The notes under the pieces were generated by a model. It ran no database searches. It saw only the letters and a list, made by a program, of their open reading frames with translations, and was not told the origin of the DNA. From NCBI GenBank assembly GCA_964404855.1, contig CAYOLO010000001.1, positions 297,322-361,321 on the forward strand: a stretch of 64,000 nt of DNA, written 5' to 3'. The translations under genes were made by a program, and so were the position numbers. This DNA is from an uncultured Gammaproteobacteria bacterium. GTDB taxonomy: Bacteria > Patescibacteriota > Microgenomatia > CAYQLK01. Shown here piece by piece: positions 22,898-52,836 of this stretch (position 1 is its first letter; every line of letters begins with the position of its first letter).

Positions 22898-23428
22898 TTA
22901 ATCCTTATTCTTGAACGCTTTGAATTTGGTAATACCAAGATAGATTACTGTTAATGAAAGAATGCCGATAATTATTCCAGCTAAGAAGTGATTATTTTGA
23001 ATCGCGAATAATAATTTTAGTGGGGCGTTAAGAATAGTGGTTGGAGATTCTGGATTAAGTAATCGATAAAGAGCGATTTGTTGTTTTTCTAATTCGTCTA
23101 TTTTGTCAATTATTTCATCTTTTTCGGGAGGGGTTAGTGGTTTGCCTTTAGTAGGAGTAGGTATAGCAGTTGGAGTCGGTGTAGGGGTGCTGGTGGGTCC
23201 AGGAGTAGGTGTAGATGTTGGTCCTGGGGTTGGTGTTGAAGTGGTGCCTGGAACTGGTGTAGGGGTTGGTGTCGGTGTCGGTGTTGGGGTTGCTGTTGGA
23301 CAAATATTTACACAAGCTGTGGTGTTGACGTCTTCAGCGCGAACTTCTGTTTGAATAATAAACAGTAGTACTAGTGATAGTAGTGGAATGGTTAGTTTGG
23401 GCAGCATTTGGGCAATATTATACTGCAT
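22898..23428 (-). CDS. small secreted Thr/Pro-rich protein with a C-terminal TM anchor
   Basis: Signal peptide, CVNIC, TPTPTPTPTP linker, coiled DEIIDKIDELEKQQ, and a C-terminal TM + KFKAFKNKD. Confidence 0.5.
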   Translation of the reverse strand: MQYNIAQMLPKLTIPLLSLVLLFIIQTEVRAEDVNTTACVNICPTATPTPTPTPTPTPVPGTTSTPTPGPTSTPTPGPTSTPTPTPTAIPTPTKGKPLTPPEKDEIIDKIDELEKQQIALYRLLNPESPTTILNAPLKLLFAIQNNHFLAGIIIGILSLTVIYLGITKFKAFKNKD

Positions 23429-23467
23429 AGATTTTGACCATATTTAACCAAAATAAATGTTGTAAGG

Positions 23468-23500
23468 TCAAAAAAAAACACTCCCCGAGTGCAGGAGTGC
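23468..23500 (-). terminator. rho-independent terminator for the minus-strand gene 23597..24652
   Basis: Read on the minus strand: cactcc(tgcactcgg)ggagtg followed by T9. Confidence 0.65.
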
Positions 23501-23508
23501 TTTAAGAT

Positions 23509-23546
23509 GAACCGAACCGAACCGAACCGAACCGAACCGAACCGAG
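23509..23546. repeat. (GAACC)7 pentanucleotide microsatellite
   Basis: gaaccgaaccgaaccgaaccgaaccgaaccgaacc, lying between the stop of gene 23597..24652 and its terminator. Confidence 0.9.
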
Positions 23547-23596
23547 CTAAAAATATTGAACAAGTTGCAAGTGCGAGGCAGTAGATATTTAAGATG

Positions 23597-24652
23597 TTAC
23601 TTCTTCTTTTGAATCTCTGCAATAATCTTGCGGCGGTATGCTCTCAGTGCGAGAACTATCAGCATAACGACTACCGCGATTGCAAGTCCAGCGACGGATA
23701 GAGCCTTCCAAGGGATTACCCAGAACGAAGTGCTTGAGCTTACAATGTCATTTTTGAGTCCGTAGCTAGCAATAACTTCTACGGTGTATTTTCCGAAACC
23801 AAATTCTGGATTGAATTTGCCAACGAAACTTCTGACTGCTCCTGGAAGAACCGAAAGGGCAGAGTTGTTAAATGATTCTCTAGAAACTTCGTTGCCGAAC
23901 ATGTTACGGACTATAATGTCTCCAGCAGGGGTAAGATGGACAGAACCTGAGTTTTCAAGTCTGGCTTCGATACTTACTGGTCCAGATTCGTACATAGACT
24001 TGTCTGTTTTGATGCTTGAGATAGAGAGAGCCTCTTCAACATCTCCAGAAACTCTAACTAAAACGACTGGTCCGGTTCTGGTAATAACTTTCGAACCAGT
24101 TCCAGCTGCTTTTTCAGGAGGAGTGGTGGTTATAAAAACAGCGCCAAAATGTCCGCCTGGTTCAGCGTCTTTTGGAACAGCGATTGAGAAACTAAAAGCT
24201 TCAGAAGATTTTGGATCAATGGTAACTTGAGTTTTTGAAGCTCTGATCCAACTAGCTAATGCGTATTGATTATTAAGTGGTGATTCAGAAAATACAGCAT
24301 CACCGTTTTCGTTAATTGTTTCAATATCAGCGAGAGTTACGTAGTATGTAAGCGGGTCGTCTGATTTGTTGTCGATAACAACTTGGTGAGAACTGGTTTG
24401 ACCAGGGTCTAGGTTGAGATCAAACTTGATTGGCGAGAATGTGATGTTGGTTTCAGCAACCTGCTGTTGAGCGGCTTGAGGTTGTGCTGAAGGAGTTGAT
24501 GCACTTGGTACTCCAATTGGTGTTAATGAATTATTTTCGGATTTGAGTGGTTGAGAAGAAGGGTTGGTTTGAGCTAGTACTGGTGAGGTAGCAAGCGAAA
24601 CTATAAAAGCGGACGAAGCCAATGTAATGGCTAGTTTTTTGGGCAGATTCAT
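23597..24652 (-). CDS. cell-surface protein: signal peptide, Q/P-rich linker, beta-rich domain, C-terminal TM anchor + basic tail (CscA/DUF916-like architecture, tentative)
   Basis: MNLPKKLAITLASSAFIVSLATSPVLA signal. C-terminus SVAGLAIAVVVMLIVLALRAYRRK. Confidence 0.6.
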   Translation of the reverse strand: MNLPKKLAITLASSAFIVSLATSPVLAQTNPSSQPLKSENNSLTPIGVPSASTPSAQPQAAQQQVAETNITFSPIKFDLNLDPGQTSSHQVVIDNKSDDPLTYYVTLADIETINENGDAVFSESPLNNQYALASWIRASKTQVTIDPKSSEAFSFSIAVPKDAEPGGHFGAVFITTTPPEKAAGTGSKVITRTGPVVLVRVSGDVEEALSISSIKTDKSMYESGPVSIEARLENSGSVHLTPAGDIIVRNMFGNEVSRESFNNSALSVLPGAVRSFVGKFNPEFGFGKYTVEVIASYGLKNDIVSSSTSFWVIPWKALSVAGLAIAVVVMLIVLALRAYRRKIIAEIQKKK

Positions 24653-24688
24653 ATTTGTTTTTTTAATTATATATATAAAAATTACAAA

Positions 24689-25744
24689 TTAAAAGATACC
24701 ATAACTAGTATAAGTTAGGGTATTCGTATAGGTACCGGCAGGTTGTGTACCAGTGATTTCTAGCGAGTAGCCAATATCTGCAGTTCCACCAGCTCCTGTG
24801 CCGTTTACAGGTCCACCAGCGTCAAATATTTTGTAAGAAGTTGTACCAGTGAATCCTCCAAATATTGTTCCAGTTGTGTCAAAAGCAGAACCTGATACCA
24901 CATCGGTAGAGGTAAAGCCAAAATGACCCCCTGAAGTTGGTGTGGACCAAGTTGTTTCTGAGTTAAGAGCAGGCGGGGTACCATCATCGAATGAGTTAAT
25001 AGTGTCAGCAGTACCGTTAGTTAGGTTAGCTGACTGTCTAACTGAAGTATTGTGACCGTTAGATGCGTTAGTAGAGACCGTTAGTGTGTGGCAGTGGGTG
25101 TATTGAGTAGCAGTTGATAATGCAACTCCGTTATTGAAGTTAATTGAAGAGGCAGTAGTCCCACTTGATTCACAAGTGTCTCCACCGGAACCAACTGTGC
25201 CAGAGCTTTTGGCGGCTATTGTGAAGTCGTATGTTGCGTTGATTGTGGCGGTAACAGTAACTTGATCTTCTGTTAAGACATCAACGGCAACATTGGAAGA
25301 ATCTTCGTAAGTTCCATCGTTGTTGGCGTCTGTTTCGACTGTGATTACATAAGTAGCAGCCGAAGGGTTAGTGCTAGCTGGAACAACAAAGGTAACAGTA
25401 TCACCGGCATCACAGCTTGAAACAGAGGTGATTGTGCTAGCAAAAGGGCTAGCGCCATTGAATATACCAGCAGTTCCTGCACAAGACCCGTTACCGGTGA
25501 ATGTTGGAGTTAGTGAACCAAACGAAAAGTCGGCAGTAGTTAGTCTGACTCTAGAGGTTGAGCCGAGAGTAGAAGCTAGAGTAAAGGTAAAAGTATGAGT
25601 TGAAGATACGCCAGTTTTAAGCCTGGACATATTGTCAGAAACATCGACTAGTGCGGCAGCTCTGGCAGTCTTGGGCGGGACAAGTGTAAGTAGAATGCTA
25701 ACTATTGGCAGAATAGCAAGAAGTGATAGCTTAGAAATTTTCAT
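24689..25744 (-). CDS. secreted beta-rich surface protein, paralogue 1 of 3 (C-terminal ...GTYTNTLTYTSYGIF)
   Basis: Signal peptide with ARAAA cleavage. Ser/Thr/Gly-rich. Shares a C-terminal domain with the next two genes and with the C-terminus of the 2556-aa protein. Confidence 0.7.
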   Translation of the reverse strand: MKISKLSLLAILPIVSILLTLVPPKTARAAALVDVSDNMSRLKTGVSSTHTFTFTLASTLGSTSRVRLTTADFSFGSLTPTFTGNGSCAGTAGIFNGASPFASTITSVSSCDAGDTVTFVVPASTNPSAATYVITVETDANNDGTYEDSSNVAVDVLTEDQVTVTATINATYDFTIAAKSSGTVGSGGDTCESSGTTASSINFNNGVALSTATQYTHCHTLTVSTNASNGHNTSVRQSANLTNGTADTINSFDDGTPPALNSETTWSTPTSGGHFGFTSTDVVSGSAFDTTGTIFGGFTGTTSYKIFDAGGPVNGTGAGGTADIGYSLEITGTQPAGTYTNTLTYTSYGIF

Positions 25745-25747
25745 GGT

Positions 25748-26809
25748 CTAAAAAATACCGTAGCTAGTGTAGGTGAGAGTGTTGGTGTAAGTACCAGGCT
25801 CCTGTGTACCAAGGATTTCTAGAGAGTAACCGACATTACTAGCAAAGGCGCTAACAGCAGCTGATTCGTCCTGAATCTTGTAGGCAGTGGTACCAGTGAA
25901 CCCGGCAAAGCTTGTGCCGACGGATGAGAAAGATGACCCACCCCAAGTATCACTGGAAGCAAAGCCGAAATGACCTGGTGAGGTAGGTGTTGACCAAGTT
26001 GTTTCTGAGCCAACTGAAGGTGGTGTACCATCATCAAACGAGTTGATAGTGTCTGAGGTACCGTTGGTTAGGTTAGCAGATTGGGCAACAAAGCTTCTAA
26101 AACCAGCAGTAGCGTTAGTGGAGACTGTTAAAGTATGACAGTGAGTGTATTGGGTTGAAGTCGAAAGATTAACACCGTTGTTGAAGTTAATTGAAGAAGC
26201 AGTCGTTCCACTCGATTCGCAAGTGTCACCACCAGAACCAACAGTACCAGATGTTTTGGCAGTAACAGCAAAGTCAAAAGTAGCACCAATTGAAGCTGAA
26301 ACAGTAACTTGATCCTCAGTTAAGATGTCAACGGCAACATTAGACGAGTCTCCGTCTGTGTAGGTGCCGTCGTTGTTAGGGTCAGTTTCAATAACGAATA
26401 CATAAGTAGCAGCTGCAGGGTTGGAAATAGCTGATGTTGTAAGCGTGACCACATCACCTGAACCACAACCAGAAACAGAAGTAAGGTTGGTAACATTTGA
26501 TGACCAAGCGCCGGTTGTAGCTGAACAGCCACCTGTAGCAGAGAAACCTGGGGTACCGGTGTAGGAGAAGCTTGCTTGGGTGATTCTTATTTTAGATGAG
26601 CTACCAAGAGTAGTGGATAAAGTGAATGTCCAAGTGTGGGTGGCAGAAACACCAGTTTTTTGACGGGAAAGGGCATTGCTAACACTCGTAAGTGAGGCTG
26701 CGGCTGTTTGTTTGGGGGTAAGCGTAATTAAAGTGGTCGAAAGAACAACTGCAATAAGGCAGAGTACCGATAGTTTTTTAACGGTTTTGGTTGTTTGGCG
26801 CAGTCGCAT
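25748..26809 (-). CDS. secreted beta-rich surface protein, paralogue 2 of 3
   Basis: Signal peptide. The C-terminal ~198 aa are identical to paralogue 3. Confidence 0.7.
   Translation of the reverse strand: MRLRQTTKTVKKLSVLCLIAVVLSTTLITLTPKQTAAASLTSVSNALSRQKTGVSATHTWTFTLSTTLGSSSKIRITQASFSYTGTPGFSATGGCSATTGAWSSNVTNLTSVSGCGSGDVVTLTTSAISNPAAATYVFVIETDPNNDGTYTDGDSSNVAVDILTEDQVTVSASIGATFDFAVTAKTSGTVGSGGDTCESSGTTASSINFNNGVNLSTSTQYTHCHTLTVSTNATAGFRSFVAQSANLTNGTSDTINSFDDGTPPSVGSETTWSTPTSPGHFGFASSDTWGGSSFSSVGTSFAGFTGTTAYKIQDESAAVSAFASNVGYSLEILGTQEPGTYTNTLTYTSYGIF
25770..26346. repeat. ~580-bp perfect direct repeat, copy A (3' half of paralogue 2)
   Basis: Identical embedded track ORFs 25819..26037 and 26973..27191, and identical flanking sequence. 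The offset is 1154 bp. Confidence 0.8.
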
Positions 26810-26901
26810 TCTTAATATAAAAAGATGTTATCCCAATGATTACAATTAGCTACTGGTTTGTCAATAACTGGAATTGGTTAATTTAACTTAACAATAAAAC
26901 T

Positions 26902-27981
26902 CTAAAAAATTCCGTAACTGGTGTAGGTAAGAGTGTTGGTGTAAGTACCAGGCTCCTGTGTACCAAGGATTTCTAGAGAGTAACCGACATTACTAGCAAA
27001 GGCGCTAACAGCAGCTGATTCGTCCTGAATCTTGTAGGCAGTGGTACCAGTGAACCCGGCAAAGCTTGTGCCGACGGATGAGAAAGATGACCCACCCCAA
27101 GTATCACTGGAAGCAAAGCCGAAATGACCTGGTGAGGTAGGTGTTGACCAAGTTGTTTCTGAGCCAACTGAAGGTGGTGTACCATCATCAAACGAGTTGA
27201 TAGTGTCTGAGGTACCGTTGGTTAGGTTAGCAGATTGGGCAACAAAGCTTCTAAAACCAGCAGTAGCGTTAGTGGAGACTGTTAAAGTATGACAGTGAGT
27301 GTATTGGGTTGAAGTCGAAAGATTAACACCGTTGTTGAAGTTAATTGAAGAAGCAGTCGTTCCACTCGATTCGCAAGTGTCACCACCAGAACCAACAGTA
27401 CCAGATGTTTTGGCAGTAACAGCAAAGTCAAAAGTAGCACCAATTGAAGCTGAAACAGTAACTTGATCTTCAGTTAAGATGTCAACGGCAACATTAGACG
27501 AGTCTTCGTATGTTCCATCGTTGTTAGCGTCGGTTTCTACAACAATGACATATGTGTTTGCGGCAGGATTTGTGCTAGCTGGAACAGTAAAAGTAACGGT
27601 GTCACCAGAATCACAGCTTGTAACAGAGGTTATGGAGCTAACAAAAGGGCTAGAACCGTTAAAGACACCAGCTGTTCCAGCACAAGAGTTGTTACCAGTA
27701 AATGTTGGAGTTAGTGAACCAAACGAAAAGCTAGAGGTGGTTAGTTTGACTCTAGAAGTGCCACCTAGAGTAGAGGCTAAAGTAAAAGTAAAAGTGTGAG
27801 TAGATGAAATACCAGTTTTTTGTCTGGACATTGCGTCAGTTACATTGACAAGGGAAGCAGCATTTACGGTTTTGCCACCGAACATGACGAAGTTAGGAAG
27901 ACCTATTAAAAGGGCAAGTACGAAAAGGAGCAGTTTTTTGAACTTATTCGTGTGAACTGACATTATTGTTATTATCATCAC
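26902..27981 (-). CDS. secreted beta-rich surface protein, paralogue 3 of 3 (mosaic: N-terminus like paralogue 1, C-terminus identical to paralogue 2)
   Basis: N-terminal half LVNVTDAMSRQKTGISSTHTFTFTLASTLGGTSRVKLTT... is ~85% identical to paralogue 1. The C-terminal half is 100% identical to paralogue 2. Confidence 0.7.
   Translation of the reverse strand: MMIITIMSVHTNKFKKLLLFVLALLIGLPNFVMFGGKTVNAASLVNVTDAMSRQKTGISSTHTFTFTLASTLGGTSRVKLTTSSFSFGSLTPTFTGNNSCAGTAGVFNGSSPFVSSITSVTSCDSGDTVTFTVPASTNPAANTYVIVVETDANNDGTYEDSSNVAVDILTEDQVTVSASIGATFDFAVTAKTSGTVGSGGDTCESSGTTASSINFNNGVNLSTSTQYTHCHTLTVSTNATAGFRSFVAQSANLTNGTSDTINSFDDGTPPSVGSETTWSTPTSPGHFGFASSDTWGGSSFSSVGTSFAGFTGTTAYKIQDESAAVSAFASNVGYSLEILGTQEPGTYTNTLTYTSYGIF
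26924..27500. repeat. ~580-bp perfect direct repeat, copy B (3' half of paralogue 3)
   Basis: See copy A. Confidence 0.8.
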
Positions 27982-27992
27982 AAAAAATATCT

Positions 27993-28925
27993 CTAGTTGT
28001 CAATTGGCTTTTTGGACTTTTTGAAGACTTTGATGCTAAGAATAATTGCAGTTAGTAAAAGTACTATTGTAATTAGTGGATAAGCGATATATCCAAGTGA
28101 GGGAATAATATAAATTGTGAATTCTTGAGATGTGTACTTAACACCATTGTCCCCAGTGACGGTGGAGCTTACCTTGTAGATGCCTGGAGTGGTGTCGGTT
28201 ATGTAGATTGCTGGTGGAATATTTTTTTCGAGAGTTGTTGTCATTTGTCTGACAGCTCCCGCTAAGATGTTTTGGGGAATAATCGGGATTATTTTTTGGC
28301 TTTTGCTATCAATTATCGAAGTCAAAACTATGGAACCTTCGATAGTTTGAAATTTATTTAGATTGTTTTGAACAGTGAGAGAAAGAGTAGATTTACCGAT
28401 TTGCTGAATTTTTTCTCCCGTTAAGGATATTTTGATATCACCTTCGATTTTTTTCTTGTCAAAAAGTGAAAGGATGATGTTTGAAGCTACAGACGGTTGG
28501 ATAGTAGCGGAGCTTTTTTTGGAATCAGGTTCAGGTGAAATTGGAGAGGCTAAAATTGCAAAATAAAAATCTTGTTCTTCAATTGTTTCAGGAACATTGA
28601 TGCGAAACCCGATTGTTTGATCTTCAGCACTGGTTGCTTTGGTAATTGGCGGGAAAAACTGCACCCATTTTGTAACAGGGTAGTTGGGGTTATCGGGTAA
28701 GAGTTTGATAAGGCCTTGAGTGCCATCGGCTTCAAATTGGCGAATGCTGAATTGATAAGTACTACCGGTATCGGCGGAAAACTTAAAAGTGCCATTAATG
28801 CCATTACCTGGTTTGCCTTTTATTTCGAAATGAGAGGGTTCAATCGCGACGGTCGAAGCATTAACTACATTATATATGGAGAAAAAAATTATTAAGCTAA
28901 AAAGCGGGGCAAGGACTTTTTTCAT
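27993..28925 (-). CDS. cell-surface protein: signal peptide, two beta-rich domains, C-terminal TM anchor + KKSKK tail (CscA/DUF916-DUF3324-like architecture, tentative)
   Basis: MKKVLAPLFSLIIFFSIYNVVNA signal. C-terminus YPLITIVLLLTAIILSIKVFKKSKK. Confidence 0.6.
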   Translation of the reverse strand: MKKVLAPLFSLIIFFSIYNVVNASTVAIEPSHFEIKGKPGNGINGTFKFSADTGSTYQFSIRQFEADGTQGLIKLLPDNPNYPVTKWVQFFPPITKATSAEDQTIGFRINVPETIEEQDFYFAILASPISPEPDSKKSSATIQPSVASNIILSLFDKKKIEGDIKISLTGEKIQQIGKSTLSLTVQNNLNKFQTIEGSIVLTSIIDSKSQKIIPIIPQNILAGAVRQMTTTLEKNIPPAIYITDTTPGIYKVSSTVTGDNGVKYTSQEFTIYIIPSLGYIAYPLITIVLLLTAIILSIKVFKKSKKPIDN

Positions 28926-28940
28926 TGGTTGTATTTTAGC

Positions 28941-31900: not shown

Positions 31901-34900
31901 CACTAGCTGCACTTGGTTCGAATGAGAGATTATATAGACTAATTGTGCCTGAACCACCGAAGGTTGGGGTGGCGCTGGCAGCTGTTTTGGCACTAAAGGT
32001 ACCACTAGCGCTTTGGGTAATGGAACCGCTAATTGAGACATCGCCCGAGCCTGCAGTGGTGGAGCCGACGGTGATATTGTTGGTACCAAGAGCAAATGTT
32101 CCAGTTGTGACAGTTAAATCGCCATTGGCTGTAATTGTACCCCCAGCGTTGAATGTTTCAGAAGCGTTAAGGGTTAGATTAGTAAATGTTAGAGTTGGAA
32201 TTGTGGTGTCTCCGGAACCGTTGTTGCCGGTAAATGCAAAGGTCGAAGTGCTACCAGTTAGGGTGGAGGAGGCGTTGACGGCTGTTGGAGTGCCGTCAGT
32301 GCCAGAAAGTGTCCAAGTACGGTTGCCGGCATCAAGAACTGTTGGGGCAGAGTCGCCGCCTTCGCCAAGTGTTAAGTCACCAGTAACATTAATTGCGCCA
32401 GTACCGCCTGTTTGGGTGGTAATTGTTCTTGAGGAGCCTGAGGAATTGGAAAATGTAAGGTTGACGAAATTCCAAGCAGTGGCACCCGAGGTAGCGCCAA
32501 AGTTTTGGGCTGCGGCCACTCTTTGTTTGAATGTACTTGTGCCTGTGTAGTTAATCGTACCGCCACCGGAAATTGCACCATTTACTGTAGTAGTTACCGA
32601 GGTTGAACTGCCAATTGTTCCTGTAACTACAAGCGAATTAGTAACAGTCATTGAAGAAGTTACTGTAGTAGTGAAGGTATTACTGATTGTTAGATTATAA
32701 ATTGCGATTGCACCAGAACCACCGCCAATATTGCCCGTACCGTTCATTGTGACGGTTGGTGTGCCAGCAGTGTTGGCGACTGCGCCAGTTGAAGTAGTTG
32801 TAATGTCACCACCAGCTATTGTCGTGTCGGCGTTAATATTAAGGGTGGCGCCAGCATCTACGAGAATGTCTCTCGACATAGCGTTGGTGGCGCTGCCGAG
32901 CGTGGCTGTAGCGCTGTCGTCGACATGAAAGTCAGCTGTTCCATTAGTCGTAACTGTTCCGTTTGGGGTGTAGGTTTTGCCGGTAAAAACTAATAGCTCT
33001 ATACCACTAGTAACGCTAAGGTTGTTACTCGATACAGTATATGGGATATCGCCATCATTACCGCTATCGTAGGTGTCCATATCGGTATTATCAACAGCTG
33101 TGGCGTCGTCAGATGTTACCGTCACAGTATTGGTATAGACAATATTACCTGTTGAGTTGCCAGAGCCATCAAATCTGATTACTGTTGCTCCGTCTGTGGC
33201 GTCATTATCAATCCAAACGACGATGCCTTCGCCGGCTGCTGGAGCAGAAATGGTCGCGTCAGAAAAAGCACCAGTTGAGTCATTACAGAAGGTTGTGGTG
33301 GTGACGCCGTTGCTGCGGATTGCTACATTGTAAGTTGGAGTGGTGTGATCACAGAGAGCTGGTGCCGAAGAAGTGCCCGCAGTATAGACATTACCTGACA
33401 CAGTGATTGGGTCGGCAGGGATAGACACGCTTGGGTAGGTGCAAGCTGACGAAAGACAGTCCGTAACTCCAGAAGGATTGTAAGTAAATACAGGCGTTAA
33501 TTGGTCGTTATCGTAAGCGCGGAAATAGTAGGTGGTAGCGGCGGCAACATCTTCGGCTTTTAGGGGATAGTCTACTTCCAGTATTGCCGAGGCAGAGTGG
33601 TCCATGTTGGCTCCAGCTGCAGCGTCTTTGTCAGATGTATAAGTGCCGTTTTGGGTTGTACCTGTTAGTGCGCTAGAGCCTACTGCGGTGTTGTCTGAAC
33701 AAGAACCACAGGTTTCTCCGCTAGTAGCGTAGCGCCAGACTGCAGATGTTTCTCCCGTGTCGCCAACATCAGTCCAAGTGCAAGTATCAGGGACGGTTGA
33801 TGGGGTACATCCGGAGGTGTATTGGAGTTTTTTTCTGGCGTCAGTTTGAGCTACGGCACCTCTTTCGTAATATTGCATTCTAAGGCGAATAAATTCTTCT
33901 TTGGCGACACTGCCTGTAGTGTTTTCTGCGGCCACTCCAGAAGATGGCGTGTTATTTGTTTCATCGTTATAGAATCGCCAATTGCGCTGCCAAGGTGTAT
34001 AGATTTTCCAAGTAAACTCATAGCTAAATGCCGAACCTTCGCCTCCGGTAGTACCGTCTGGAGCGGATGCGTTAGGGCAGGCAAGACCGTACATTGAGCC
34101 GTTGACTTCGACATCAGCTTGGGCAGTGCCACCAAAGCTTGAGCCGGTCCAAAGCTGGGCATACATGTCACAGTCAACATCGACAGTAAGCATCATGATG
34201 TCATCGGTATTTTCGTTCGGATAGAGTCTTATCCCTAATGAGTCATCTGATGTGGTAACGCCTGTTCTGGTCTTAGTGCCGTAACTAGAGGTTGGAGTGT
34301 AGGTCATAAAGTTACCGTCAGTTGTGGTACCTCCGTCGTTATAAACGACCAAACCAAGCCCTGATGTGCCACCAGCCTGTTGGCGCTGAAATACCGACGA
34401 AGATTGTTTGGCGTTTAATGTTTCTGTTCCTGTATCTGGACAGTTGGTAGTGTTGACACCGCCACTACACTCTGTCCAGCCGTTTGTGGAGTTGTCTGCC
34501 CGCCAGACGGCATGACTATAGTCGTCACCTGAGGTTCCAGTAGAGACCATAATCCTACTACTAGTCGGGTCGCCGTTTGTTTCTATCCAGAATCCAGCAC
34601 TCGCGTCAGTAAAGGCGTTATTCTCTCCACCCCAGCCTGAGCCAACGGTATAGACTTGATAGTTAACGTTGCTGTTTGTTGTGTGGAGATAGTTGACAAT
34701 GAATGTGTTGCTACTGCCACCACCTTGCCAAGCACCGTCAAAACATTGAGCAACAGTACATCCGGTTAGTCCTGCATCCAGTGCGGCAGAGAGACAGCTG
34801 AATGAACTGCCGTCCCAATAGCAAGCGAAAAGGTCGGAGTTAGTATCGGCAATTAGTACCATAATTCGATTAGATCTTTTGTCAGCGAGACGGCTACCAT

Positions 34901-36611
34901 CACTGATTACGCGAATCCATTGAGGTGTGCCGCCCGTACCTCCTGTGTGGAAGTCGACTTCGTTAGTAGCAGATGGTGATCCTGGAGAGGAGTCTGGTGA
35001 CCAAGCTGAACCATCCCAGAGTGCGTAGTAGAATTTGTCAGTAACACTATCTCCGTAGACAACCATTGCTCGACCGGAGAGTGATTCGTAGGCTATATCA
35101 AAAGCTCTTTCACAAGTGCTGGCGGTTTGAGCAGTATCACAGTCTTGGGTTGGTGTTGTGCCTGGATTGTTCCATTGAGCGGTAAAGTCTCCGTTGGCGT
35201 CACATCCTGTCGTACATGTTTCGACATATAAATCCCCGTTGACTTTGAGAGTGCCGATTATTTCTTCTTCTCTGGTTGGGGAAGTTTCAGCTACAGTCCA
35301 AAGTATAAAGCTAGTACTATTGGCGGCACCGTTAAATTCCGACCCAAAAGTTGAAGTTGAGGTAAAGGTTTTTCCTCTTAGGACGCCGTTAGTAGCTGAG
35401 GTATCGCCGTAAAATAAGTTACCGTTGGCTGTAACAGCGTCAGAGGCGATTTGCCACTCTCTGATTTCGCCAAAATCACCAATGATTAAAGGACCAAGGA
35501 GAAAAAACTCTGGACTGATATCTGGAGCGTCGAAGATATAACTAAGATTAAGTGTTTGCCCAGCAACAAGACTTGCTTGCCAAGTGAGTTTTTTGTCGTC
35601 ACCTTCGGTTGATTCAGTAAATACACCTTGTGATTTAGTGATAATAAAATTACTTGGAACTGTTTCAATAATTGTGCCTGTGTAGTTAGTATTGGCGGTA
35701 ATTTGCAGACTGACTTTGTAGTTAGCAGGAGGATAGATACGAGATGGGCCGGAACGTTTAATGATAAATGGATTATTTCCATTTACTTCGAAGAAGTCAT
35801 TAATTGTTCTGGTACCGTTTTTTGTTTCTGCCGAGTATTTGATGGTGTATGTGCCTATTTCGTCGCCGATTTGATATTCAGAAGAGTAGTCTGGGATATC
35901 AGTGATGTTATCAAGTCCACATTCACCGCTGGGGTTAATTTGACCATCTTTGGACGAGAGAATGCTGGTGTTTTTGGAAGGAGTAGTTATTTCGACAGTT
36001 AATTTGGCATCACAAATCGTGTGTCCTAAGTCGTCGACAGTTCCAAAGGATAGTTTGGCTAAATCATTAGGAGAGTAAATAGTTTGGTCGAAGTTAATTG
36101 CTAATACTCCCCATGTGAAATCTTGTTTAATATTTTTGATTTGCCCGTTTTTTTCTATTTCAACATCAAGTGTATATTTTCCTGGAGTAAATGAGCTTGC
36201 AGTGATTGTGTTGGTGTGAATATTGAATTCATTGGAGTTTTGTTTGATTGAAGTACCAATATTCTTAGCAATATTTCCATCAGGTTTTAAAATTTGAGCC
36301 TTAATATTATTGGAGGATAGAATTTGGGTCTCGTTGAGTTTGAGTTTGAATGTAGGGGACTCATCGACTCTAAAAGAGTTTTTTGGAAGTTCGACTACTG
36401 CTTTTGGATAAATTTCTGATTTGGGTAATGATTTAAAAACTAGAACAGTGCTTGCAATGATAATTAAGACAAAAATAAAAGCAAAAACAGTTTTAGAGTG
36501 GTCGGTTATTTTTTTGACCCTGCTAGTGGTGGAAAGTATTAGGTGGGCTTGAGGCTGAAGGGTAAAATTTTTTCTACGAAAAGGGTAGAAGTTTGGCAGG
36601 ATAGTTTTCAC
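28941..36611 (-). CDS. giant (2556 aa) N-terminally anchored surface protein: beta-helix/adhesin-like Thr/Gly/Ser/Asn-rich repeats, and a C-terminal domain homologous to the three small paralogues
   Basis: N-terminal signal-anchor FAFIFVLIIIASTVLVF. Long G/T/S/N-rich repeats. The C-terminus ...AGAWSSSTTYGFGYT...AQEAGNYETKVTYILTGTY resembles the paralogues' ...TTWSTPTSGGHFGFTST...TQPAGTYTNTLTYTSYGIF. Confidence 0.75.
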   Translation of the reverse strand: MKTILPNFYPFRRKNFTLQPQAHLILSTTSRVKKITDHSKTVFAFIFVLIIIASTVLVFKSLPKSEIYPKAVVELPKNSFRVDESPTFKLKLNETQILSSNNIKAQILKPDGNIAKNIGTSIKQNSNEFNIHTNTITASSFTPGKYTLDVEIEKNGQIKNIKQDFTWGVLAINFDQTIYSPNDLAKLSFGTVDDLGHTICDAKLTVEITTPSKNTSILSSKDGQINPSGECGLDNITDIPDYSSEYQIGDEIGTYTIKYSAETKNGTRTINDFFEVNGNNPFIIKRSGPSRIYPPANYKVSLQITANTNYTGTIIETVPSNFIITKSQGVFTESTEGDDKKLTWQASLVAGQTLNLSYIFDAPDISPEFFLLGPLIIGDFGEIREWQIASDAVTANGNLFYGDTSATNGVLRGKTFTSTSTFGSEFNGAANSTSFILWTVAETSPTREEEIIGTLKVNGDLYVETCTTGCDANGDFTAQWNNPGTTPTQDCDTAQTASTCERAFDIAYESLSGRAMVVYGDSVTDKFYYALWDGSAWSPDSSPGSPSATNEVDFHTGGTGGTPQWIRVISDGSRLADKRSNRIMVLIADTNSDLFACYWDGSSFSCLSAALDAGLTGCTVAQCFDGAWQGGGSSNTFIVNYLHTTNSNVNYQVYTVGSGWGGENNAFTDASAGFWIETNGDPTSSRIMVSTGTSGDDYSHAVWRADNSTNGWTECSGGVNTTNCPDTGTETLNAKQSSSVFQRQQAGGTSGLGLVVYNDGGTTTDGNFMTYTPTSSYGTKTRTGVTTSDDSLGIRLYPNENTDDIMMLTVDVDCDMYAQLWTGSSFGGTAQADVEVNGSMYGLACPNASAPDGTTGGEGSAFSYEFTWKIYTPWQRNWRFYNDETNNTPSSGVAAENTTGSVAKEEFIRLRMQYYERGAVAQTDARKKLQYTSGCTPSTVPDTCTWTDVGDTGETSAVWRYATSGETCGSCSDNTAVGSSALTGTTQNGTYTSDKDAAAGANMDHSASAILEVDYPLKAEDVAAATTYYFRAYDNDQLTPVFTYNPSGVTDCLSSACTYPSVSIPADPITVSGNVYTAGTSSAPALCDHTTPTYNVAIRSNGVTTTTFCNDSTGAFSDATISAPAAGEGIVVWIDNDATDGATVIRFDGSGNSTGNIVYTNTVTVTSDDATAVDNTDMDTYDSGNDGDIPYTVSSNNLSVTSGIELLVFTGKTYTPNGTVTTNGTADFHVDDSATATLGSATNAMSRDILVDAGATLNINADTTIAGGDITTTSTGAVANTAGTPTVTMNGTGNIGGGSGAIAIYNLTISNTFTTTVTSSMTVTNSLVVTGTIGSSTSVTTTVNGAISGGGTINYTGTSTFKQRVAAAQNFGATSGATAWNFVNLTFSNSSGSSRTITTQTGGTGAINVTGDLTLGEGGDSAPTVLDAGNRTWTLSGTDGTPTAVNASSTLTGSTSTFAFTGNNGSGDTTIPTLTFTNLTLNASETFNAGGTITANGDLTVTTGTFALGTNNITVGSTTAGSGDVSISGSITQSASGTFSAKTAASATPTFGGSGTISLYNLSFEPSAASATYTLGSGASQTITIANNLTIGDDTNSVTVNADTNDPTVDVNGNFLINTSATYQNSATVAMTVAKNFTNDGTYTHNGGTISLDGSTTSDDSTVTCSGTIGGSIGFNKTGDGDITIGSGCTVASPGSGISMTGNIINNGTINNGGTTFNLDNLTGGEGDLTNNGGATITYSGTAMTIEGDFTQSGTFNLTGITVTLDGSSSSDNSTVICGTLGGTLAFNKTGGATVTINTSCIVAVTTISMTGNYVNNGTTNISGSTFNLDSTSGNGGSLTNGASATMTYSGTIITLEKDYTHTSGTTFNLSGKTLTFDGADTTDDSTLTCSTTLAGTHNIAKTIQGADFTLSASCVITMVASVTTYGSITVNGSMTGTTITTRGSVLKDSGGTLVVAGNTLVFEDGGVDTDSTLDCEGGTITGAVEQNMTHAGSTLTLASTCTITDDFTRTDGAFSNPGSAYTMTVQGDFSMSTTDTFGGANLTLTMGGTATTQNITQNAGTMSGVFTVNKSSGTAQMATDFTTGSTCTITDGTFFLNSFDFNCGSTFTVADTLQMEGNELPTTPTLSVGSYVIFVGDNDTVADVYNIPNYTWRNLTIDSDDGNTDTFTQQVNTTVNENFCIITGTYDLDSFSLDVTGTVCNNGGLMTNAGDFNYDSNTILLTDSGYSEDNNFTQGDTIYMTVTDVSVNLNGGSAETLSVSITTTTGDSETKTLTETGNSTAIFRGSITSAWGTYTTSNNNIEMVLDDVITLSYTDANDGTDTGSDTANTTADPPPAGSGKLVSTNFEMDGAFGSFGDRKSSTNYTLTDTGGVLAAGPGESTNYDLGSGFQYWNIGSNRLELTISSTTIAFGTLTPGTPATNNHNLQVVSDAPGGYQVTAQEVTRLANINYAGFYIPDVLGDASNITHTSAGAWSSSTTYGFGYTLANVTGTDAAFTSNYRHFADLAFAESPVAVMSNVGTTNDSEITVTYKVNVSSAQEAGNYETKVTYILTGTY

Positions 36612-36699
36612 TATTTAATTGTATAGAAAGTTGAGCACAAATTGAACAGCTAAAGTAAGACGCTATTATATATGGTTATCTACGTGATGATATTTGAGC

Positions 36700-38988
36700 C
36701 TAATTGGTTGGTTCGGCGGAGTTGGTTGCGGTTGGAGGAGTTGGGGATGGGTTTAGAATAACTGGAGTTTGTTCTGATTTTTCTTGTTGAGATTGACTCT
36801 CTGCTAATGCTTTTTCCCATTCTTTTGTTAAATCTGCTCTACTCGGATTGTCGGTTGGGAGAAGATTGAGGGCTGTTTCGAGTGCCGTGGCTCTTTTGGT
36901 GGCGGAATCAGGTCTGTTTTTGAGCGCTTCAGCCAGGGCAATATATCCGACAGGGTAGTCGGGTTTTTTCTGAATTGCGACTTCAAAATTAGTTATGGCT
37001 GAGTCTGTAACACCAAGTGTTAAAAACGTTCTGCCTAGGTTGATGTAGAGAAGTGGGTTCTGAGGGTCAAGGGCGAGGGCTTGTTGTTGAGCTTTGAGAG
37101 CGTGTTGTTCAGCGTCTTTGCCTATACCGATTAGTGAACGGTAGACTTGTGAAAGCGTTTCCCAATTACCAACATTAAGATTGGATGTGCCTGATTGAAT
37201 ATTGGTTTGATAGCCTGTGATTATTTTGCCTTGCTCGATAGCCTGACTAATTAGCGAAGTAATGTCTTTTTCTTCTTGTTCGGTTAGAGGCGATTCGGTG
37301 CTATTAGGATCGGCGTTAGCTTGTGCATTTTGGAGAATTGATCTGGCTAGAGCCATATAAGTAACGATAAGTTGTTTGCGATAGACACTTTCTGCGCCAT
37401 TTTCTTTGATGGCGGCAATTTGTTCATTAAGAGCTTCGACTCCATCACTTTTTGAGGTTGCCAGTGCGCTTTTTTGGAAATGGGTTTCAGCTTGGAACGA
37501 GTCTCTGTAGAAGAAAAATAGAAAGATTGAGCCAACCAGTGTAGGGATTAGTAACAAAATTGGAATTACCATTGATAGCTCTTCTTTGACACGCTGGGAT
37601 TGCTTTTTGGATTTTTTGAGACTTAGTTCAGATTTAGTGGAACTTGAGTTGTTGATGGCACCTAGTAATCCAAAGAAAATTAGCAAAACGCTTGCGGTAT
37701 AAATATTAGCAAGGCTTGTAATTATTAGAATAAGGACAGTTAGGGTGATGTATTTGTAAATAAGTTTGTCTTCGGAATTATTTTTCAGGATTTTTATTGT
37801 TTTGGTAAGAATAATTAAAACAATTAGGATAAAGGAAGCTATGCCGAGTATGCCGGTACCAGCAAGAATCATAAGCACTTCTGAGTTGGGTTGATCGAAA
37901 CGAAGATTCCAGAACTGAGTTAGGTTAATTGATTGGGGTTTTAGCTGAGTATAAGCATAAGCAAAGGTGCCTTGTCCTGAGCCGATTAGGGCTCGGTTTT
38001 GGTTACGGATAACACCGACGCTGACAGAATAGCTTTCGGCTTGGGGCAGTGTAACTTCCTTGGGGAATTCGACATTTGAATTGGTTTGTTTGTCAGAAGT
38101 TTTAATTAGCTTGCCGTAAGTTGAAGTGTTGAGGTTAGGAATGTAGGCAAATATTGTCAAAAACAGCCAAACGAGTGCTACAAGTGCTAGTATTAGTGAT
38201 TTTTTGACTGCTAATTCTTTACGACTGGTGAGGGCTAGTAAGGCAAAAATTACAATCAGACTTATCCATCCACTAAGGGAGTTGATTAACGAGAAACACC
38301 ACAAAATTGGTAATAGTGAGATTGGAAAAACGAACGATAGGAATGATTTGCTGGGTGAATATTTTTTGATTGATAGGTAGATACCTAGAGGAACCGATAA
38401 AGTAAGGATTACTCCCAGATTATTAATGCTTGTTGCAGGCGTCCATGATCTAATTTGGCTAAAACTCATTGGCAGAAATAATCCAAAATAGTTCATTAGT
38501 CCAATTATGGAGAGTAAGACTGAAGAGAGGTAAATTGACAAAACTGTGAATTTTGTACTTCTTTTGGTTAAGTTATTGGCCGCAACAAAATAAATAACAA
38601 TGACAGCGAGTATAAAAATTAGTGAATGGTTAAATCTTGGATACCATCCAGCGATTGAAACATAGCGATCAACAGAGAACGATGCGGCCAAAATATTAGT
38701 AAACGCGAAGATAATAACTGCAATATCAACAATTGATGTTCTTATTTTGAATTTTCCTAGAAGAGCTGATTTGGTAAACCAAAGTATTAACAGAACGGCG
38801 GCGGACAATGAGGTGAGTAAGACTTTGTTAAATTCGTAATACTCACTGGTGAGGGGAATAAAGAAAAGCGGTACTAGGCCAAATAAAATATTCAGCCAAA
38901 TAATTATTGTTTTGCCAATGAAATTTGCTAGGTCGTTTCTCATGAATTTCGTTATGGCAAATGTAAAGCTTATGGTAGTGCTTGTCAA
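36700..38988 (-). CDS. polytopic membrane protein (>=10 TM) with C-terminal TPR repeats, possibly an O-antigen-ligase/Wzy-like envelope glycosylation or polymerase protein
   Basis: Many hydrophobic helices in the first 480 aa. TPR-like repeats are present (AIQKKPDYPVGYIALAEALKN, LDPQNPLLYINLGRTF). The functional family is inferred only. Confidence 0.5.
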   Translation of the reverse strand: MTSTTISFTFAITKFMRNDLANFIGKTIIIWLNILFGLVPLFFIPLTSEYYEFNKVLLTSLSAAVLLILWFTKSALLGKFKIRTSIVDIAVIIFAFTNILAASFSVDRYVSIAGWYPRFNHSLIFILAVIVIYFVAANNLTKRSTKFTVLSIYLSSVLLSIIGLMNYFGLFLPMSFSQIRSWTPATSINNLGVILTLSVPLGIYLSIKKYSPSKSFLSFVFPISLLPILWCFSLINSLSGWISLIVIFALLALTSRKELAVKKSLILALVALVWLFLTIFAYIPNLNTSTYGKLIKTSDKQTNSNVEFPKEVTLPQAESYSVSVGVIRNQNRALIGSGQGTFAYAYTQLKPQSINLTQFWNLRFDQPNSEVLMILAGTGILGIASFILIVLIILTKTIKILKNNSEDKLIYKYITLTVLILIITSLANIYTASVLLIFFGLLGAINNSSSTKSELSLKKSKKQSQRVKEELSMVIPILLLIPTLVGSIFLFFFYRDSFQAETHFQKSALATSKSDGVEALNEQIAAIKENGAESVYRKQLIVTYMALARSILQNAQANADPNSTESPLTEQEEKDITSLISQAIEQGKIITGYQTNIQSGTSNLNVGNWETLSQVYRSLIGIGKDAEQHALKAQQQALALDPQNPLLYINLGRTFLTLGVTDSAITNFEVAIQKKPDYPVGYIALAEALKNRPDSATKRATALETALNLLPTDNPSRADLTKEWEKALAESQSQQEKSEQTPVILNPSPTPPTATNSAEPTN

Positions 38989-42632: not shown

Positions 42633-43820
42633 ATGGGCAAATTTTGGCTTGTGATATTGATTTTGTTACTGATGGCAATGTTTAGGTCAACAGTTTTGGT
42701 TGAACAAAAGTATAGGCACAGTGATTTGGTTATCGATGAGGAGTTGAGAGTAAATAATTACCCAGAATTTTCAAAAAATGTTCAATATTTTGATACTGAC
42801 TATGGAAGGTTGGTAACCGACAGATGGCCAAAGTATGAAAAGGGTGAGATTTTGTTGGTAAAAGGAGACTATTTGGCGGAAAAAGAGGCGATTTGGTTTC
42901 CTGAGGTTAGTTCTAGAGGTAAACCTACAGGAATACAGGGACTATTAAACTCAATAAGAAGTGGTATTTCACATAAAATCAATCATTATTTTGACCATCA
43001 ATCATCGGAATTAATATTGGGAATGCTTATTGGTCAGAATGATTTGACGCCTGATTTATCAGAACAACTTAAGCGTTCAGGTGTTATTCATGTTGTGGTT
43101 GTTTCTGGGCAGAATTTGACAATGATTTTTGCTTTCCTTGCGCTTTGGGGTAGATACACTAGGAGGAAAGTTTTTTTAATAATTTCAATAACCATATTAA
43201 GTGTATATGTGTTTTTGGTAGGAATGGATCCACCTGTGGTTAGAGCATATTTAATGATCTTGGTTGTTGTTTTGGCGGAATTATTAGGTAGAAAATATTC
43301 AAGTGTTCAGGCTTTGGTTCTGACTGCTGGAGTGATGGTGGCGTACAACCCTTTGTATATCGGGGAGGTGTCGTTCAGGTTATCTTTTTTGGCTTCGCTT
43401 GGGGTATTAATAGGAATAAAAGTAACTAGCTTGCTAAATACGGGCCAAAAAGGCTTTTTAAAGTATTTGGTGGAGGTGTATATCACAAGTTTTTTTGCGT
43501 GGCTTATGACTGCGCCAGTGATAATTATAAGCTTTGGATCATTGAGCGTAGTTGCGCCAATAGTAAACTTAGCTGTGTTGTGGTTAGTTCCAATAATTAT
43601 GGTTGGTGGAACAATATTTGTGTTAGTGCCTGATTTTTTTAGCAGTTTTTTCAGTTATTTTTTGCAGATTCTGGTAAATGGTTTTTTGGTTGTAGTAGCT
43701 TGGTTTGCAAAAATTGATATAGATATTTATGAAGCTAACAGTAGTATAAGTTTATATATTGTTATTTTTAGTTATATTTTGATACTCACTTTAATTAAAT
43801 TGTTTTTAAAAATTAAATGA
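42633..43820 (+). CDS. comEC: ComEC/Rec2 competence membrane channel domain protein
   Basis: Competence-domain motif SGVIHVVVVSGQNL and multiple TM helices. Confidence 0.7.
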   Translation: MGKFWLVILILLLMAMFRSTVLVEQKYRHSDLVIDEELRVNNYPEFSKNVQYFDTDYGRLVTDRWPKYEKGEILLVKGDYLAEKEAIWFPEVSSRGKPTGIQGLLNSIRSGISHKINHYFDHQSSELILGMLIGQNDLTPDLSEQLKRSGVIHVVVVSGQNLTMIFAFLALWGRYTRRKVFLIISITILSVYVFLVGMDPPVVRAYLMILVVVLAELLGRKYSSVQALVLTAGVMVAYNPLYIGEVSFRLSFLASLGVLIGIKVTSLLNTGQKGFLKYLVEVYITSFFAWLMTAPVIIISFGSLSVVAPIVNLAVLWLVPIIMVGGTIFVLVPDFFSSFFSYFLQILVNGFLVVVAWFAKIDIDIYEANSSISLYIVIFSYILILTLIKLFLKIK

Positions 43821-49469: not shown

Positions 49470-49542
49470 GGGCCGGTAGCTCAGTTGGTAGAGCATCGCA
49501 TTTGCAATGCGAGGGTCAGGAGTTCGAGTCTCCTTCGGTCCA
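49470..49542 (+). tRNA. tRNA-Ala (anticodon UGC), leader of the rRNA unit
   Basis: gggccgg...anticodon loop ttTGCaa...T-arm aggag-ttcgagt-ctcct. G3:U70 pair. Confidence 0.8.
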
Positions 49543-49726
49543 CTGTTTAGACTTTTGAACGGGTATTTTAAAATTAAAATTCCCGTATTTGGGTCTAACC
49601 AAAACAAAAAATTAGGCTTGAACTTTAAAAACTGAATAGAAAATATTTGTCCAAAAATATTTTTGACGAGAAAAACTTTTACAGAAAAGAGAAAAAATTA
49701 GTTCTTTATCTGCGAACAAAAAAGAT

Positions 49727-52622
<2,896 letters not shown>

Positions 52623-52836
52623 GAGTTTTCTTGTTTTTTAAAACAAGATATTTCCAGTCTTTTTTATTCGCAAAAAGAATTTTTCGTTCTTAAGTGTTTA
52701 AAAGGCAAATTAAGTTTTGTGATAAATTTCTTATCTTTAACAATTTATTGTTAAAGGCAGAAATGATTTGCGAAGCAAACATTTCTATTCAGTTTTTAGG
52801 TGTTCAAGCTTTTTTTGTGCTTGAAAGATTACTATT

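Follow-up and report, generated by a model that had tools for sequence, protein, structure and literature searches.

The surface-gene cluster analysed here lies at positions 22898-38988 of the window, a 64-kb stretch of a Candidatus Curtissbacteria contig, and comprises eight open reading frames, all on the minus strand. Along that strand, a gene for a polytopic TPR membrane protein of 762 aa (36700-38988) opens the run and is followed by a giant surface protein of 2556 aa (28941-36611), a divergent WxLIP-like protein of 310 aa (27993-28925), three small secreted paralogues, numbered 3 (26902-27981, 359 aa), 2 (25748-26809, 353 aa) and 1 (24689-25744, 351 aa), and a second WxLIP homologue of 351 aa (23597-24652). 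The gaps between these seven genes are, in order, 88, 15, 11, 92, 3 and 36 bp. The last gene, for a small Thr/Pro-rich protein of 176 aa (22898-23428), is set apart from the 351-aa WxLIP gene by 168 bp that contain a terminator-like hairpin (23475-23503, minus strand; an 11-bp stem and then a T-run, a consensus match only). The initial annotation's account of eight minus-strand genes with gaps of 3-92 bp and one internal terminator is thus confirmed. Adjoining the run on the same strand is a second giant surface protein of 1806 aa (17092-22512), whose membership in the system has not been shown. These eight genes and the adjoining giant are the only lagging-strand genes in the 64 kb, and since all other non-overlapping open reading frames of at least 150 aa are on the plus strand, the orientation of the run is not due to chance.

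By profile comparison, both anchored proteins are homologues of WxLIP (DUF916/DUF3324), which bears out their earlier description as DUF916-like. The 351-aa protein scores 44.5 bits against PF06030 (DUF916/PGBD) in a Pfam scan, where the cutoff is 27.3; homology of the anchored proteins to a Bacillus WxLIP receives a probability of 96% from hhalign; and the WxLIP family profile matches 9i1y with an E-value of 1e-9. The 310-aa protein has no Pfam match of its own, and is counted as DUF916-type only because residues 15-305 match the Patescibacterial WxLIP-family HMM (E 1.8e-24). The WxLIP N-terminal motif NQIDKxxxYFDLK is retained in its second half only, with TNITFSPIKFDLNL aligned to NQIDKNLTYFDLKM, and the second WxLIP domain gave no match to PF11797 (DUF3324/HBD) at an E-value of 0.1 or better. 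Both proteins have an N-terminal signal peptide and, towards the other end, a transmembrane helix; between these the 310-aa protein has two Ig-like domains, and the 351-aa protein a low-complexity linker, a DUF916/PGBD-like domain and a second Ig-like domain that is tentatively HBD-like. The signal peptides, MNLPKKLAITLASSAFIVSLATSPVLA and MKKVLAPLFSLIIFFSIYNVVNA, were read by eye from the translations without a predictor, and both C-termini show a hydrophobic stretch followed by a basic tail. The signal peptide and C-terminal membrane segment ascribed to both proteins at the outset were thereby confirmed from the translations, along with a helix at residues 315-350 in the AF2 model of the 351-aa protein.

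The three tandem paralogues proved to be just that, with pairwise identities of 63-82% and blastp E-values of 1e-147 or lower. Each joins a variable N-terminal Ig-like domain to a conserved C-terminal domain of ~190 aa (cprC). In paralogue 1, a signal peptide precedes a variable BslA/YweA-like Ig domain at about residues 30-159 and the conserved domain at residues 160-351 (nt 24692-25267). Conservation reaches 0.5-0.77 in the C-domain, as opposed to 0.29-0.42 in the body of the N-domain. Paralogues 2 and 3 are identical at the DNA level over their 3′ halves and differ in their N-domains, and the N-domain of paralogue 3 is similar to that of paralogue 1. Gene conversion among the tandem copies, taken with the variable N-domain, suggests that the exposed part evolves fast, as would be expected of a surface that faces a host or a phage.

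The 2556-aa giant has a hydrophobic segment near its N-terminus (residues 41-60), a long Thr/Gly/Asn-rich region and a terminal cprC domain (residues 2399-2556; 28944-29417, minus strand), which the family HMM recognises at E 1.8e-18 and which hhalign aligns with the paralogue family at a probability of 98.4% (E 1e-14). The domain is therefore common to four proteins of the locus, namely the three small paralogues and this giant. The suggestion that a giant protein carries the C-terminal domain of the paralogues holds for the 2556-aa protein and not for the 1806-aa one, which matches neither cprC nor cprN. In other Patescibacteria the cluster begins with an X-cprC protein of ~450 aa, and residues 866-1097 of the 2556-aa giant (33321-34016, minus strand) are homologous to the N-terminal 'X' part of seven such proteins (phmmer E-values from 1e-8 to 1e-17). 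In 101 of 101 relatives the cprC domain reaches the last residue, and the family numbers ~4,000 representative clusters at 50% identity, without a Pfam or NCBIfam model.

In the WxL/Csc clusters of Lactobacillales and Bacillales, small and large WxL proteins are encoded with a WxLIP (DUF916, DUF3324 and a transmembrane segment) and a small LPXTG protein (PMC9772566, PMC10599100), and the WxL domain always ends at the C-terminus (PMC9772566). A WxL domain (PF13731) was taken to have two Trp-x-Leu motifs, with Asp at W1-8 and Arg at W1-6, and to be 160-190 aa long and always C-terminal, occurring in the small as well as the large proteins of a cluster. Our client domain satisfies the rule of position and length, being C-terminal and ~190 aa long in three small proteins and a giant. 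It lacks the defining features of WxL, namely the Trp-x-Leu pairs and the Asp/Arg pair; motifs G-F/H-x-V and T-Y-x stand at colinear places, Val/Thr replace Asp/Arg, and the sole invariant Trp, W266, sits away from the WxL motif places. In the Pfam scan the domain had no match to PF13731 at an E-value of 0.1 or better, so that among the three families first proposed for a search PF06030 was found, and PF11797 and PF13731 were not at that threshold. Aligned with a 44-sequence WxL alignment, the C-domain alignment reached a hhalign probability of 0.3% in both global and local mode, and comparisons with a single divergent Paenibacillus WxL and with a Clavibacter WxL-like neighbour gave 1.1% and 2.8%; the client-family HMM, run on 125 WxL proteins, scored them no differently from shuffled controls. 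WxL homology of the client domain by sequence was accordingly rejected. Of the suggested WxL motifs with Y/T in place of W, only the short motif of the last beta-hairpin, AG-x-Y-x-x-T-L-T-Y/W, aligns with WxL, and not significantly. Motifs of that type are common in Ig-like domains. The clients therefore bear either a different domain or a WxL domain diverged beyond recognition, not detectably WxL in any case; the fold relation is untested, and the PDB holds no WxL domain structure. Under the definition of Hassan et al., a WxL gene cluster needs at least one WxLIP and at least two WxL proteins within four genes. The locus meets the first part with two full-length WxLIPs and fails the second, as its four client proteins share another or diverged domain in place of at least two recognisable WxL domains.

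The locus appears to be one example of a surface-protein cluster conserved Patescibacteria-wide. Across a sample of five distant loci and 80 metagenomic loci, the order X-cprC, LIP (WxLIP homologue), LIP, small client, LIP and small bitopic protein recurs, and a LIP gene lies within 5 kb in 28 of the 29 metagenomic loci that are flanked by 3 kb or more on each side. By source names, the module recurs across Microgenomates and Parcubacteria. A scan of GTDB representative genomes, with search patterns that were too lineage-specific, brought up a single near-identical genome (L001) and no other, and the taxonomic breadth consequently rests on the source names. The FGE-sulfatase, cohesin and dockerin genes that neighbour the cluster at other loci are absent from the 64-kb window. 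The three tests on which the initial annotation was to stand or fall, namely HMM searches, structure prediction and synteny, all turned out in its favour, synteny through a gene order conserved across distant Patescibacteria, and none of the outcomes that would have refuted it (no similarity, no conserved order, cytoplasmic proteins) came about.

One could instead suppose that a canonical Firmicute WxL operon arrived here by recent horizontal transfer, or that unrelated surface genes have come to lie together by accident, and both the strand of the cluster, opposite to that of all its neighbours, and its GC content of 0.42-0.49, above the 0.30-0.39 of the flanks, would agree with such an origin. 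The higher GC, however, also fits the Thr/Gly/Ala-rich composition of the proteins, the closest relatives of LIPs and clients alike are all Patescibacteria (by source names), the client family is unmatched in 72,556 plasmids, and the same order is found in dozens of divergent loci. We regard transfer or accident as scarcely credible, already contradicted as it is by the relatives and by the recurrent gene order.

Not every gene of the run belongs to what is conserved. The 762-aa protein, first in the run, has C-terminal TPR repeats (TPR_11, 34 bits, above cutoff) and a weak O-antigen-ligase-like Wzy_C region (25.7 bits, below the cutoff of 31.7), and has no homologue among the open reading frames of the 85 related loci. 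A role as the O-glycosyltransferase of the system is unsupported, given the subthreshold Wzy_C score and the absence of the gene from related loci, and whether the protein is a member of the system at all remains uncertain. The 176-aa protein leads from a signal peptide through a Thr/Pro-rich stretch and a short helical segment to a C-terminal transmembrane helix; it has no LPXTG and terminates in that helix followed by KFKAFKNKD. Its homologues, within the 85 related loci, are found solely in the near-identical genome, and orthology to the conserved ~130-aa bitopic protein was rejected for want of a match to the sm130 HMM. By analogy of place, it would be the positional counterpart of both the ~130-aa protein, to which it is unrelated in sequence, and the small LPXTG protein of Firmicutes. 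Residues 245-421 of the 1806-aa giant are similar to proteins encoded upstream of the cluster at two other loci. On these comparisons, neither this giant nor the TPR and Thr/Pro-rich proteins count among the conserved members. An eight-gene system was thus too generous a description: about six of the eight genes form a conserved core, because the TPR/Wzy_C and Thr/Pro-rich proteins lack sequence counterparts in the related loci.

In its overall plan the cluster resembles WxL/Csc in having a homologous anchor in which two Ig-like domains lie between a signal peptide and a C-terminal transmembrane helix, small and large secreted proteins with a common, strictly C-terminal domain of ~190 aa, and tandem small paralogues. 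A Bacillus tropicus plasmid carries a large lectin protein, an LPXTG protein, three WxL proteins and a WxLIP, and the order large, small, LIP and small anchored protein matches this example. The differences are equally plain. The Patescibacterial client domain is not PF13731 and has neither the Trp-x-Leu motifs nor the Asp/Arg pair, the small clients add a variable N-terminal Ig domain, each cluster has two or three LIPs instead of one, the small anchored protein is held by a transmembrane helix and not by LPXTG, and the host phylum is Patescibacteria, not Firmicutes; published descriptions place WxL and WxLIP almost wholly within Lactobacillales and Bacillales (PMC9772566, PMC10599100).

The explanation we lean towards, as probable though well short of settled, is that this is a Patescibacteria-wide variant of the WxL/Csc cluster by which Firmicutes display surface proteins; LIPs would anchor the clients, whose domain is another one and has no annotation. 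The WxL/Csc-like organisation first proposed is supported by the demonstrated homology of the anchors, the client C-terminal domain that four proteins have in common, its strict C-terminal position and the observed conservation of gene order. The 310-aa and 351-aa WxLIP homologues would sit in the cytoplasmic membrane by their C-terminal helices, with their two Ig-like domains outside. The clients, the three small paralogues and the 2556-aa giant, would be exported by Sec, and the beta-sandwich domain of ~190 aa at the end of all four would substitute for the WxL domain. The WxLIP homologues are inferred, without contact data, to bind this domain non-covalently, probably by beta-strand insertion as has been predicted for WxLIP-WxL pairs (PMC10599100), and this binding would hold the clients at the envelope. 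A LIP-client 'fusion' (P0124) offers only weak evidence of interaction, because this read-through from the LIP transmembrane segment into a client signal peptide would give a product that is cleaved apart. Peptidoglycan binding is likewise an inference, as is the role in attachment, for which the small proteins would turn their variable N-terminal Ig domain, and the giant its long body, outwards to a host cell or substrate.

The same parts might be put together otherwise. Abundant paralogues could tile the cell through their BslA/YweA-like N-domains as a coat or S-layer-like sheet, pinned by the LIPs, with the giant as an occasional spike, and this we consider improbable: no domain of a lattice-forming or SLH type is present, promoter-like sites number 25 where shuffled sequence leads one to expect 37, and the N-domain, the would-be lattice contact, is the least conserved part. 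The paralogues also differ from the BslA/YweA coat proteins of Bacillus subtilis in an identity of only 14%, an extra C-terminal domain and another genomic context. Possible, albeit unlikely, is an usher-less, chaperone-assisted fibre. Here LIPs tethered to the membrane would work like PapD chaperones, supplying what the Ig fold of the client C-domain lacks, and clients would polymerise head to tail: a shaft of small N+C proteins would have the giant, which contributes a C-domain only, at one end and, in other Patescibacteria, an N-domain-only protein of 570-660 aa at the other. Points in common with chaperone-usher pili (CfaA-CfaE, CsuC-CsuE) would be a two-domain fold of the LIP, tentatively PapD-like, and a client similar to an adhesin or pilin subunit with two domains; for WxLIP-WxL, the homologous pair, strand complementation has been predicted (PMC10599100). 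Unlike those pili, the Patescibacterial system has no usher (the Pfam matches of the nine proteins include no such outer-membrane family) and no outer membrane, its 'chaperone' is membrane-anchored, and the resemblance is one of generic Ig folds without sequence relation. Sortase-assembled Gram-positive pili differ too, since no sortase was found among the Pfam matches of 19 proteins (nine of the cluster and ten flanking it) and no LPXTG on reading the translations of six cluster proteins. That Patescibacteria build a surface fibre other than a type IV pilus, by strand complementation in a monoderm without an usher, with LIPs holding the C-domains of giant, small N+C and N-domain-only terminator subunits, is a conjecture we hold to be quite doubtful; if a fibre were the true reading, the WxL clusters of Firmicutes would be related to this machinery as a reduced form that does not polymerise.

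No paper joining WxL or DUF916 with Patescibacteria was found in searchable main texts, and to that extent the system may still be called undescribed; the label must be qualified for one Saccharibacterium. In Southlakia epibionticum, as far as the supplementary tables of Wang et al. 2023 go, SEML1_0625-0628 are adjacent genes with LPXTG-, DUF916- and WxL-like structural matches beside a 1284-aa protein (PMC10633639). This organism belongs to the same phylum-level group, and those tables, an independent hint in favour of the display reading, give the same one-strand order of 1284-aa repeat protein, small WxL-like, DUF916-like and small LPXTG-like protein; the small protein there, however, has 188 aa and structural matches to WxL models at TM 0.85 (PMC10633639), whereas the Curtissbacteria small client has ~350 aa and two domains, its fold relation to WxL being untested. 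According to the same tables, SEML1_0625-0628 are non-essential for epibiotic growth in Tn-seq (PMC10633639), so a central role in host attachment is not implied. For the anchored-display reading preferred here, a testable hypothesis is gained, namely that the LIP binds the C-terminal domain of the client.

How the ultra-small Patescibacteria attach to and recognise their host cells is a central open question, in which mainly type IV pili have been implicated so far. The present analysis defines a multi-gene surface module, recurrent across Microgenomates and Parcubacteria, and assigns to it a family of ~4,000 clusters that had no annotation. Through the solved homologue EfmWxLIP1 the module is tied to an experimentally tractable Firmicute system, and the range of the WxLIP family is extended to a different part of the bacterial tree, where it occurs with another partner domain.

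Two minus-strand membrane-anchored proteins connect the eight-gene surface cluster (22898-38988) with the WxL (Csc) clusters of Firmicutes; we call them LIPs, as homologues of WxLIP, the DUF916/DUF3324 anchor with a C-terminal TM helix. The 351-aa LIP (23597-24652) scores 44.5 bits with Pfam PF06030 (WxLIP_PGBD, formerly DUF916), whose cutoff is 27.3, and in tblastn against plasmids its residues 77-318 match annotated DUF916 proteins of Clavibacter, Streptomyces, Paenibacillus and Bacillus, with E-values down to 1e-13. A profile built from 55 Patescibacterial relatives of this protein matched the solved E. faecium EfmWxLIP1 (9i1y, 9i25) at E 1e-9, and hhalign aligned it with a canonical Bacillus tropicus DUF916+DUF3324 protein at 96% probability over 215 columns, covering both domains and laying the IKFDLNL of the profile onto the conserved YFDLK motif. 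The AF2 model of the 351-aa LIP (pLDDT 86.5) shows a pair of beta-sandwiches and, at the C-terminus, a helix spanning 315-350. The 310-aa LIP (27993-28925) has no match in Pfam and is matched along its whole length by the Patescibacterial WxLIP-family HMM (E 1.8e-24); together with the evidence for its partner, this means that "DUF916-like", the term used in the initial annotation, holds for both.

The small clients are three minus-strand paralogues (paralogue 1, 351 aa, 24689-25744; paralogue 2, 353 aa, 25748-26809; paralogue 3, 359 aa, 26902-27981), mutually 63-82% identical, each with a variable Ig-like N-domain and a ~190-aa C-domain (cprC). Across the C-domain, in their 3' halves, paralogues 2 and 3 share a ~540-bp stretch that is 100% identical in DNA; their N-domains differ (45-68% identity) and that of paralogue 3 is nearer to paralogue 1 (~80%), a mosaic suggestive of recent gene conversion, or of domains being shuffled, within the tandem array. 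Conservation across 60 divergent relatives is seen in the C-domain and in the ~15 residues that open the mature protein, but not in the N-domain body, and the C-domain terminates at the final residue in 101 of 101 proteins. The family is without a model in Pfam or NCBIfam but is large: among representatives of clusters at 50% identity, 3952 match at E <=1e-3 and 568 at E <=1e-30; its named sources are Patescibacteria in every case, and no match was found among 72,556 plasmids. One 6395-aa relative (P0035) is made of about 31 tandem N-domain copies, so the paralogue N-domain is also put to use as a repeat in giant proteins. Another (P0124, 666 aa) is a read-through fusion in which a LIP, TM helix included, runs straight into a small client complete with signal peptide; this suggests tight translational coupling, and signal-peptidase cleavage would still part LIP from client.

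The C-domain also closes the 2556-aa giant (minus strand, 28941-36611), bearing out the earlier proposal of a giant that shares it: hhalign gave 98.4% probability (E 1e-14), and residues 2399-2556 match the paralogue-family HMM at E 1.8e-18. The ~450-aa proteins encoded by the first gene of other loci have an N-terminal part homologous to residues 866-1097 of the giant, which makes this giant an expanded orthologue of that component. In the adjacent 1806-aa giant (minus strand, 17092-22512) the family HMM found no C-domain. The architecture of this second giant is odd for a surface protein: its residues 40-120 give weak matches (E 0.0026 in Pfam; E 2.5e-4 to XerC/XerD in NCBIfam) to the SAM-like domain found at the N-terminus of tyrosine recombinases, and a hydrophobic segment and then a huge repeat-rich exterior follow.

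A Firmicute WxL cluster is defined by at least one WxLIP and at least two WxL proteins, and the WxLIP hairpin is predicted by AF2 to insert a strand into WxL (PMC9772566, PMC10599100). On a Bacillus tropicus plasmid, the order is a large lectin-domain protein, an LPXTG protein, three WxL proteins and a WxLIP; the window shares this architecture, in which two LIPs accompany a giant and three small clients. The initial comparison with WxL/Csc loci stands as far as this architecture and the LIP anchors go; at the level of sequence, the client domain failed all tests for WxL. The client domain has no PF13731 match in Pfam, hhalign gave the C-domain a 0.3% probability against a 44-sequence WxL alignment and the client domain 1-3% against divergent WxL-like proteins, and the client-family HMM scored WxL proteins no differently from shuffled sequences; its identification as a WxL domain by sequence was rejected on these tests. 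Colinear likenesses between client and WxL (an FG motif, a strand, a six-residue turn, G-F-x-V and a terminal G-[DE]-Y-x-x-T-L-T-Y) have no statistical support; a Pfam-positive Paenibacillus WxL protein ends in ...AGTYKSVFTYTATSGI, and the PDB holds no solved WxL structure. Judged by sequence, the anchors are homologous to WxLIP, and the client domain is either distinct from WxL or diverged past recognition. On the Clavibacter phaseoli plasmid pCCh (locus L007), a "hypothetical protein" gene (5101-5727) sits immediately upstream of a gene annotated as DUF916. Its 208-aa product has the WxL-like motifs TVTDTRD...GAGWYVLG and a terminal AGDYSSTITLSLFE and no Pfam match, so DUF916 partners escaping PF13731 exist also in Actinomycetota.

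The ORF list reproduced the coordinates and minus strand of all the ORFs originally claimed, including the 762-aa TPR/Wzy_C protein (36700-38988) and the 176-aa Thr/Pro-rich protein (22898-23428) at the two ends. By these coordinates the genes are separated by 88, 15, 11, 92, 3 and 36 bp and then by 168 bp, a gap containing a minus-strand terminator-like hairpin (23503-23475) with an 11-bp stem and a T-run. Since GC skew is positive along the whole window (strongly almost everywhere, up to +0.38) and all other substantial ORFs are on the plus strand, the minus-strand run is the sole lagging-strand block in 64 kb; PMC7143001 reports a comparable strand disparity for a complete Microgenomates genome. 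Flanking genes have housekeeping roles: they encode Rho, an M23/LysM and an M16 peptidase, Obg, LeuRS, ArgRS and parts of ComEC. A 23S-5S rRNA pair is located farther downstream, and close relatives of the sequence carry the name Candidatus Curtissbacteria (Microgenomates, Patescibacteria). ComEC-like functions at 42633-44641 are split over two overlapping ORFs, one of 395 aa with a Competence domain, the other of 274 aa with a metallo-beta-lactamase domain. The tRNA-Ala(TGC), 23S rRNA and 5S rRNA occupy 49470-53364, the 5S about 620 bp past the 23S; because no 16S rRNA was detected anywhere in the window and a 164-aa ORF (48744-49238) lies upstream of tRNA-Ala, the 16S gene appears unlinked.

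Gene order is conserved in related genomes and recurs in five distant loci reached via individual homologues and in 80 metagenomic loci: a C-domain-ending protein (450 to >1800 aa) comes first, then usually two LIPs, one to three small N+C proteins, one LIP, a ~130-aa bitopic coiled-coil protein, often at least one FGE-sulfatase-family protein, and a 500-660-aa protein starting with the N-domain. Of the 29 loci whose flanks extend for at least 3 kb in both directions, 28 have a LIP gene no more than 5 kb away, and the 351-aa LIP clusters with the LIPs downstream of small proteins in other loci (median 142 bits). Recent transfer from Firmicutes, or chance clustering, is contradicted by this recurrence in many divergent loci and by the Patescibacterial relatives of both LIPs and clients. 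The window is without an FGE-sulfatase or N-domain-only protein, and its TPR/Wzy_C and Thr/Pro-rich proteins have no sequence counterpart in related loci. The sole GTDB-representative genome found with a near-identical copy (L001, CAYROP010000006.1) agrees in gene content with the Curtissbacteria window. Elsewhere one to three FGE-sulfatase-family genes lie behind the cluster, and dockerin and cohesin proteins follow it (L002 13782-15485, L004 17269-19032, L009 16679-18241, L010 14631-16547), the dockerin as C-terminus of the N-domain-only protein and the cohesin as a separate protein, which hints at a cohesin-dockerin layer of the surface assembly in other Patescibacteria, missing from the window.

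Four adjacent same-strand genes of Southlakia epibionticum, SEML1_0625-0628, appear in the supplementary tables of Wang et al. 2023 (PMC10633639). SEML1_0628 has 1284 aa and FN3 repeats, SEML1_0627 (188 aa) has a WxL-domain protein as top structural match (TM 0.85) and is assigned to a CsuE-like ECOD domain, SEML1_0626 (316 aa) has DUF916 structural matches (TM 0.83), and SEML1_0625 is LPXTG-anchor-like; all are scored as non-essential, and disruption of 0625 is scored as conferring a growth advantage. These structural matches indicate that WxL-type clusters do occur in Patescibacteria, whereas the client of the window belongs to a two-domain, unannotated family. The main text of that paper does not mention WxL, and among searchable main texts we found none discussing such a system in Patescibacteria.

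The best-supported reading, which we consider reasonably probable, is that the cluster encodes a surface-display complex, with physical contact and peptidoglycan binding inferred from the Firmicute homologues. The LIPs, tethered to the membrane, would retain clients exported via Sec by binding their conserved C-domain, and the variable N-domains of the small clients and the body of the giant would face outwards. The main rival, a fibre built by chaperone-like strand complementation, seems to us unlikely: the top Foldseek match of the paralogue is CfaE, tip adhesin of the CfaA-CfaE chaperone complex, but at a TM of 0.22 such likenesses are only at a generic Ig-fold level. The combination of first-gene N-terminus with C-domain, N-domain with C-domain, and N-domain with another C-terminus also suits a head-to-tail polymer. 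A BslA-like coat ranks below the fibre. With anchors homologous to WxLIP and a conserved order, the initial interpretation as a surface complex of WxL/Csc-like organisation was in essence right, and a system without discussion in the literature searched is conserved across a phylum.
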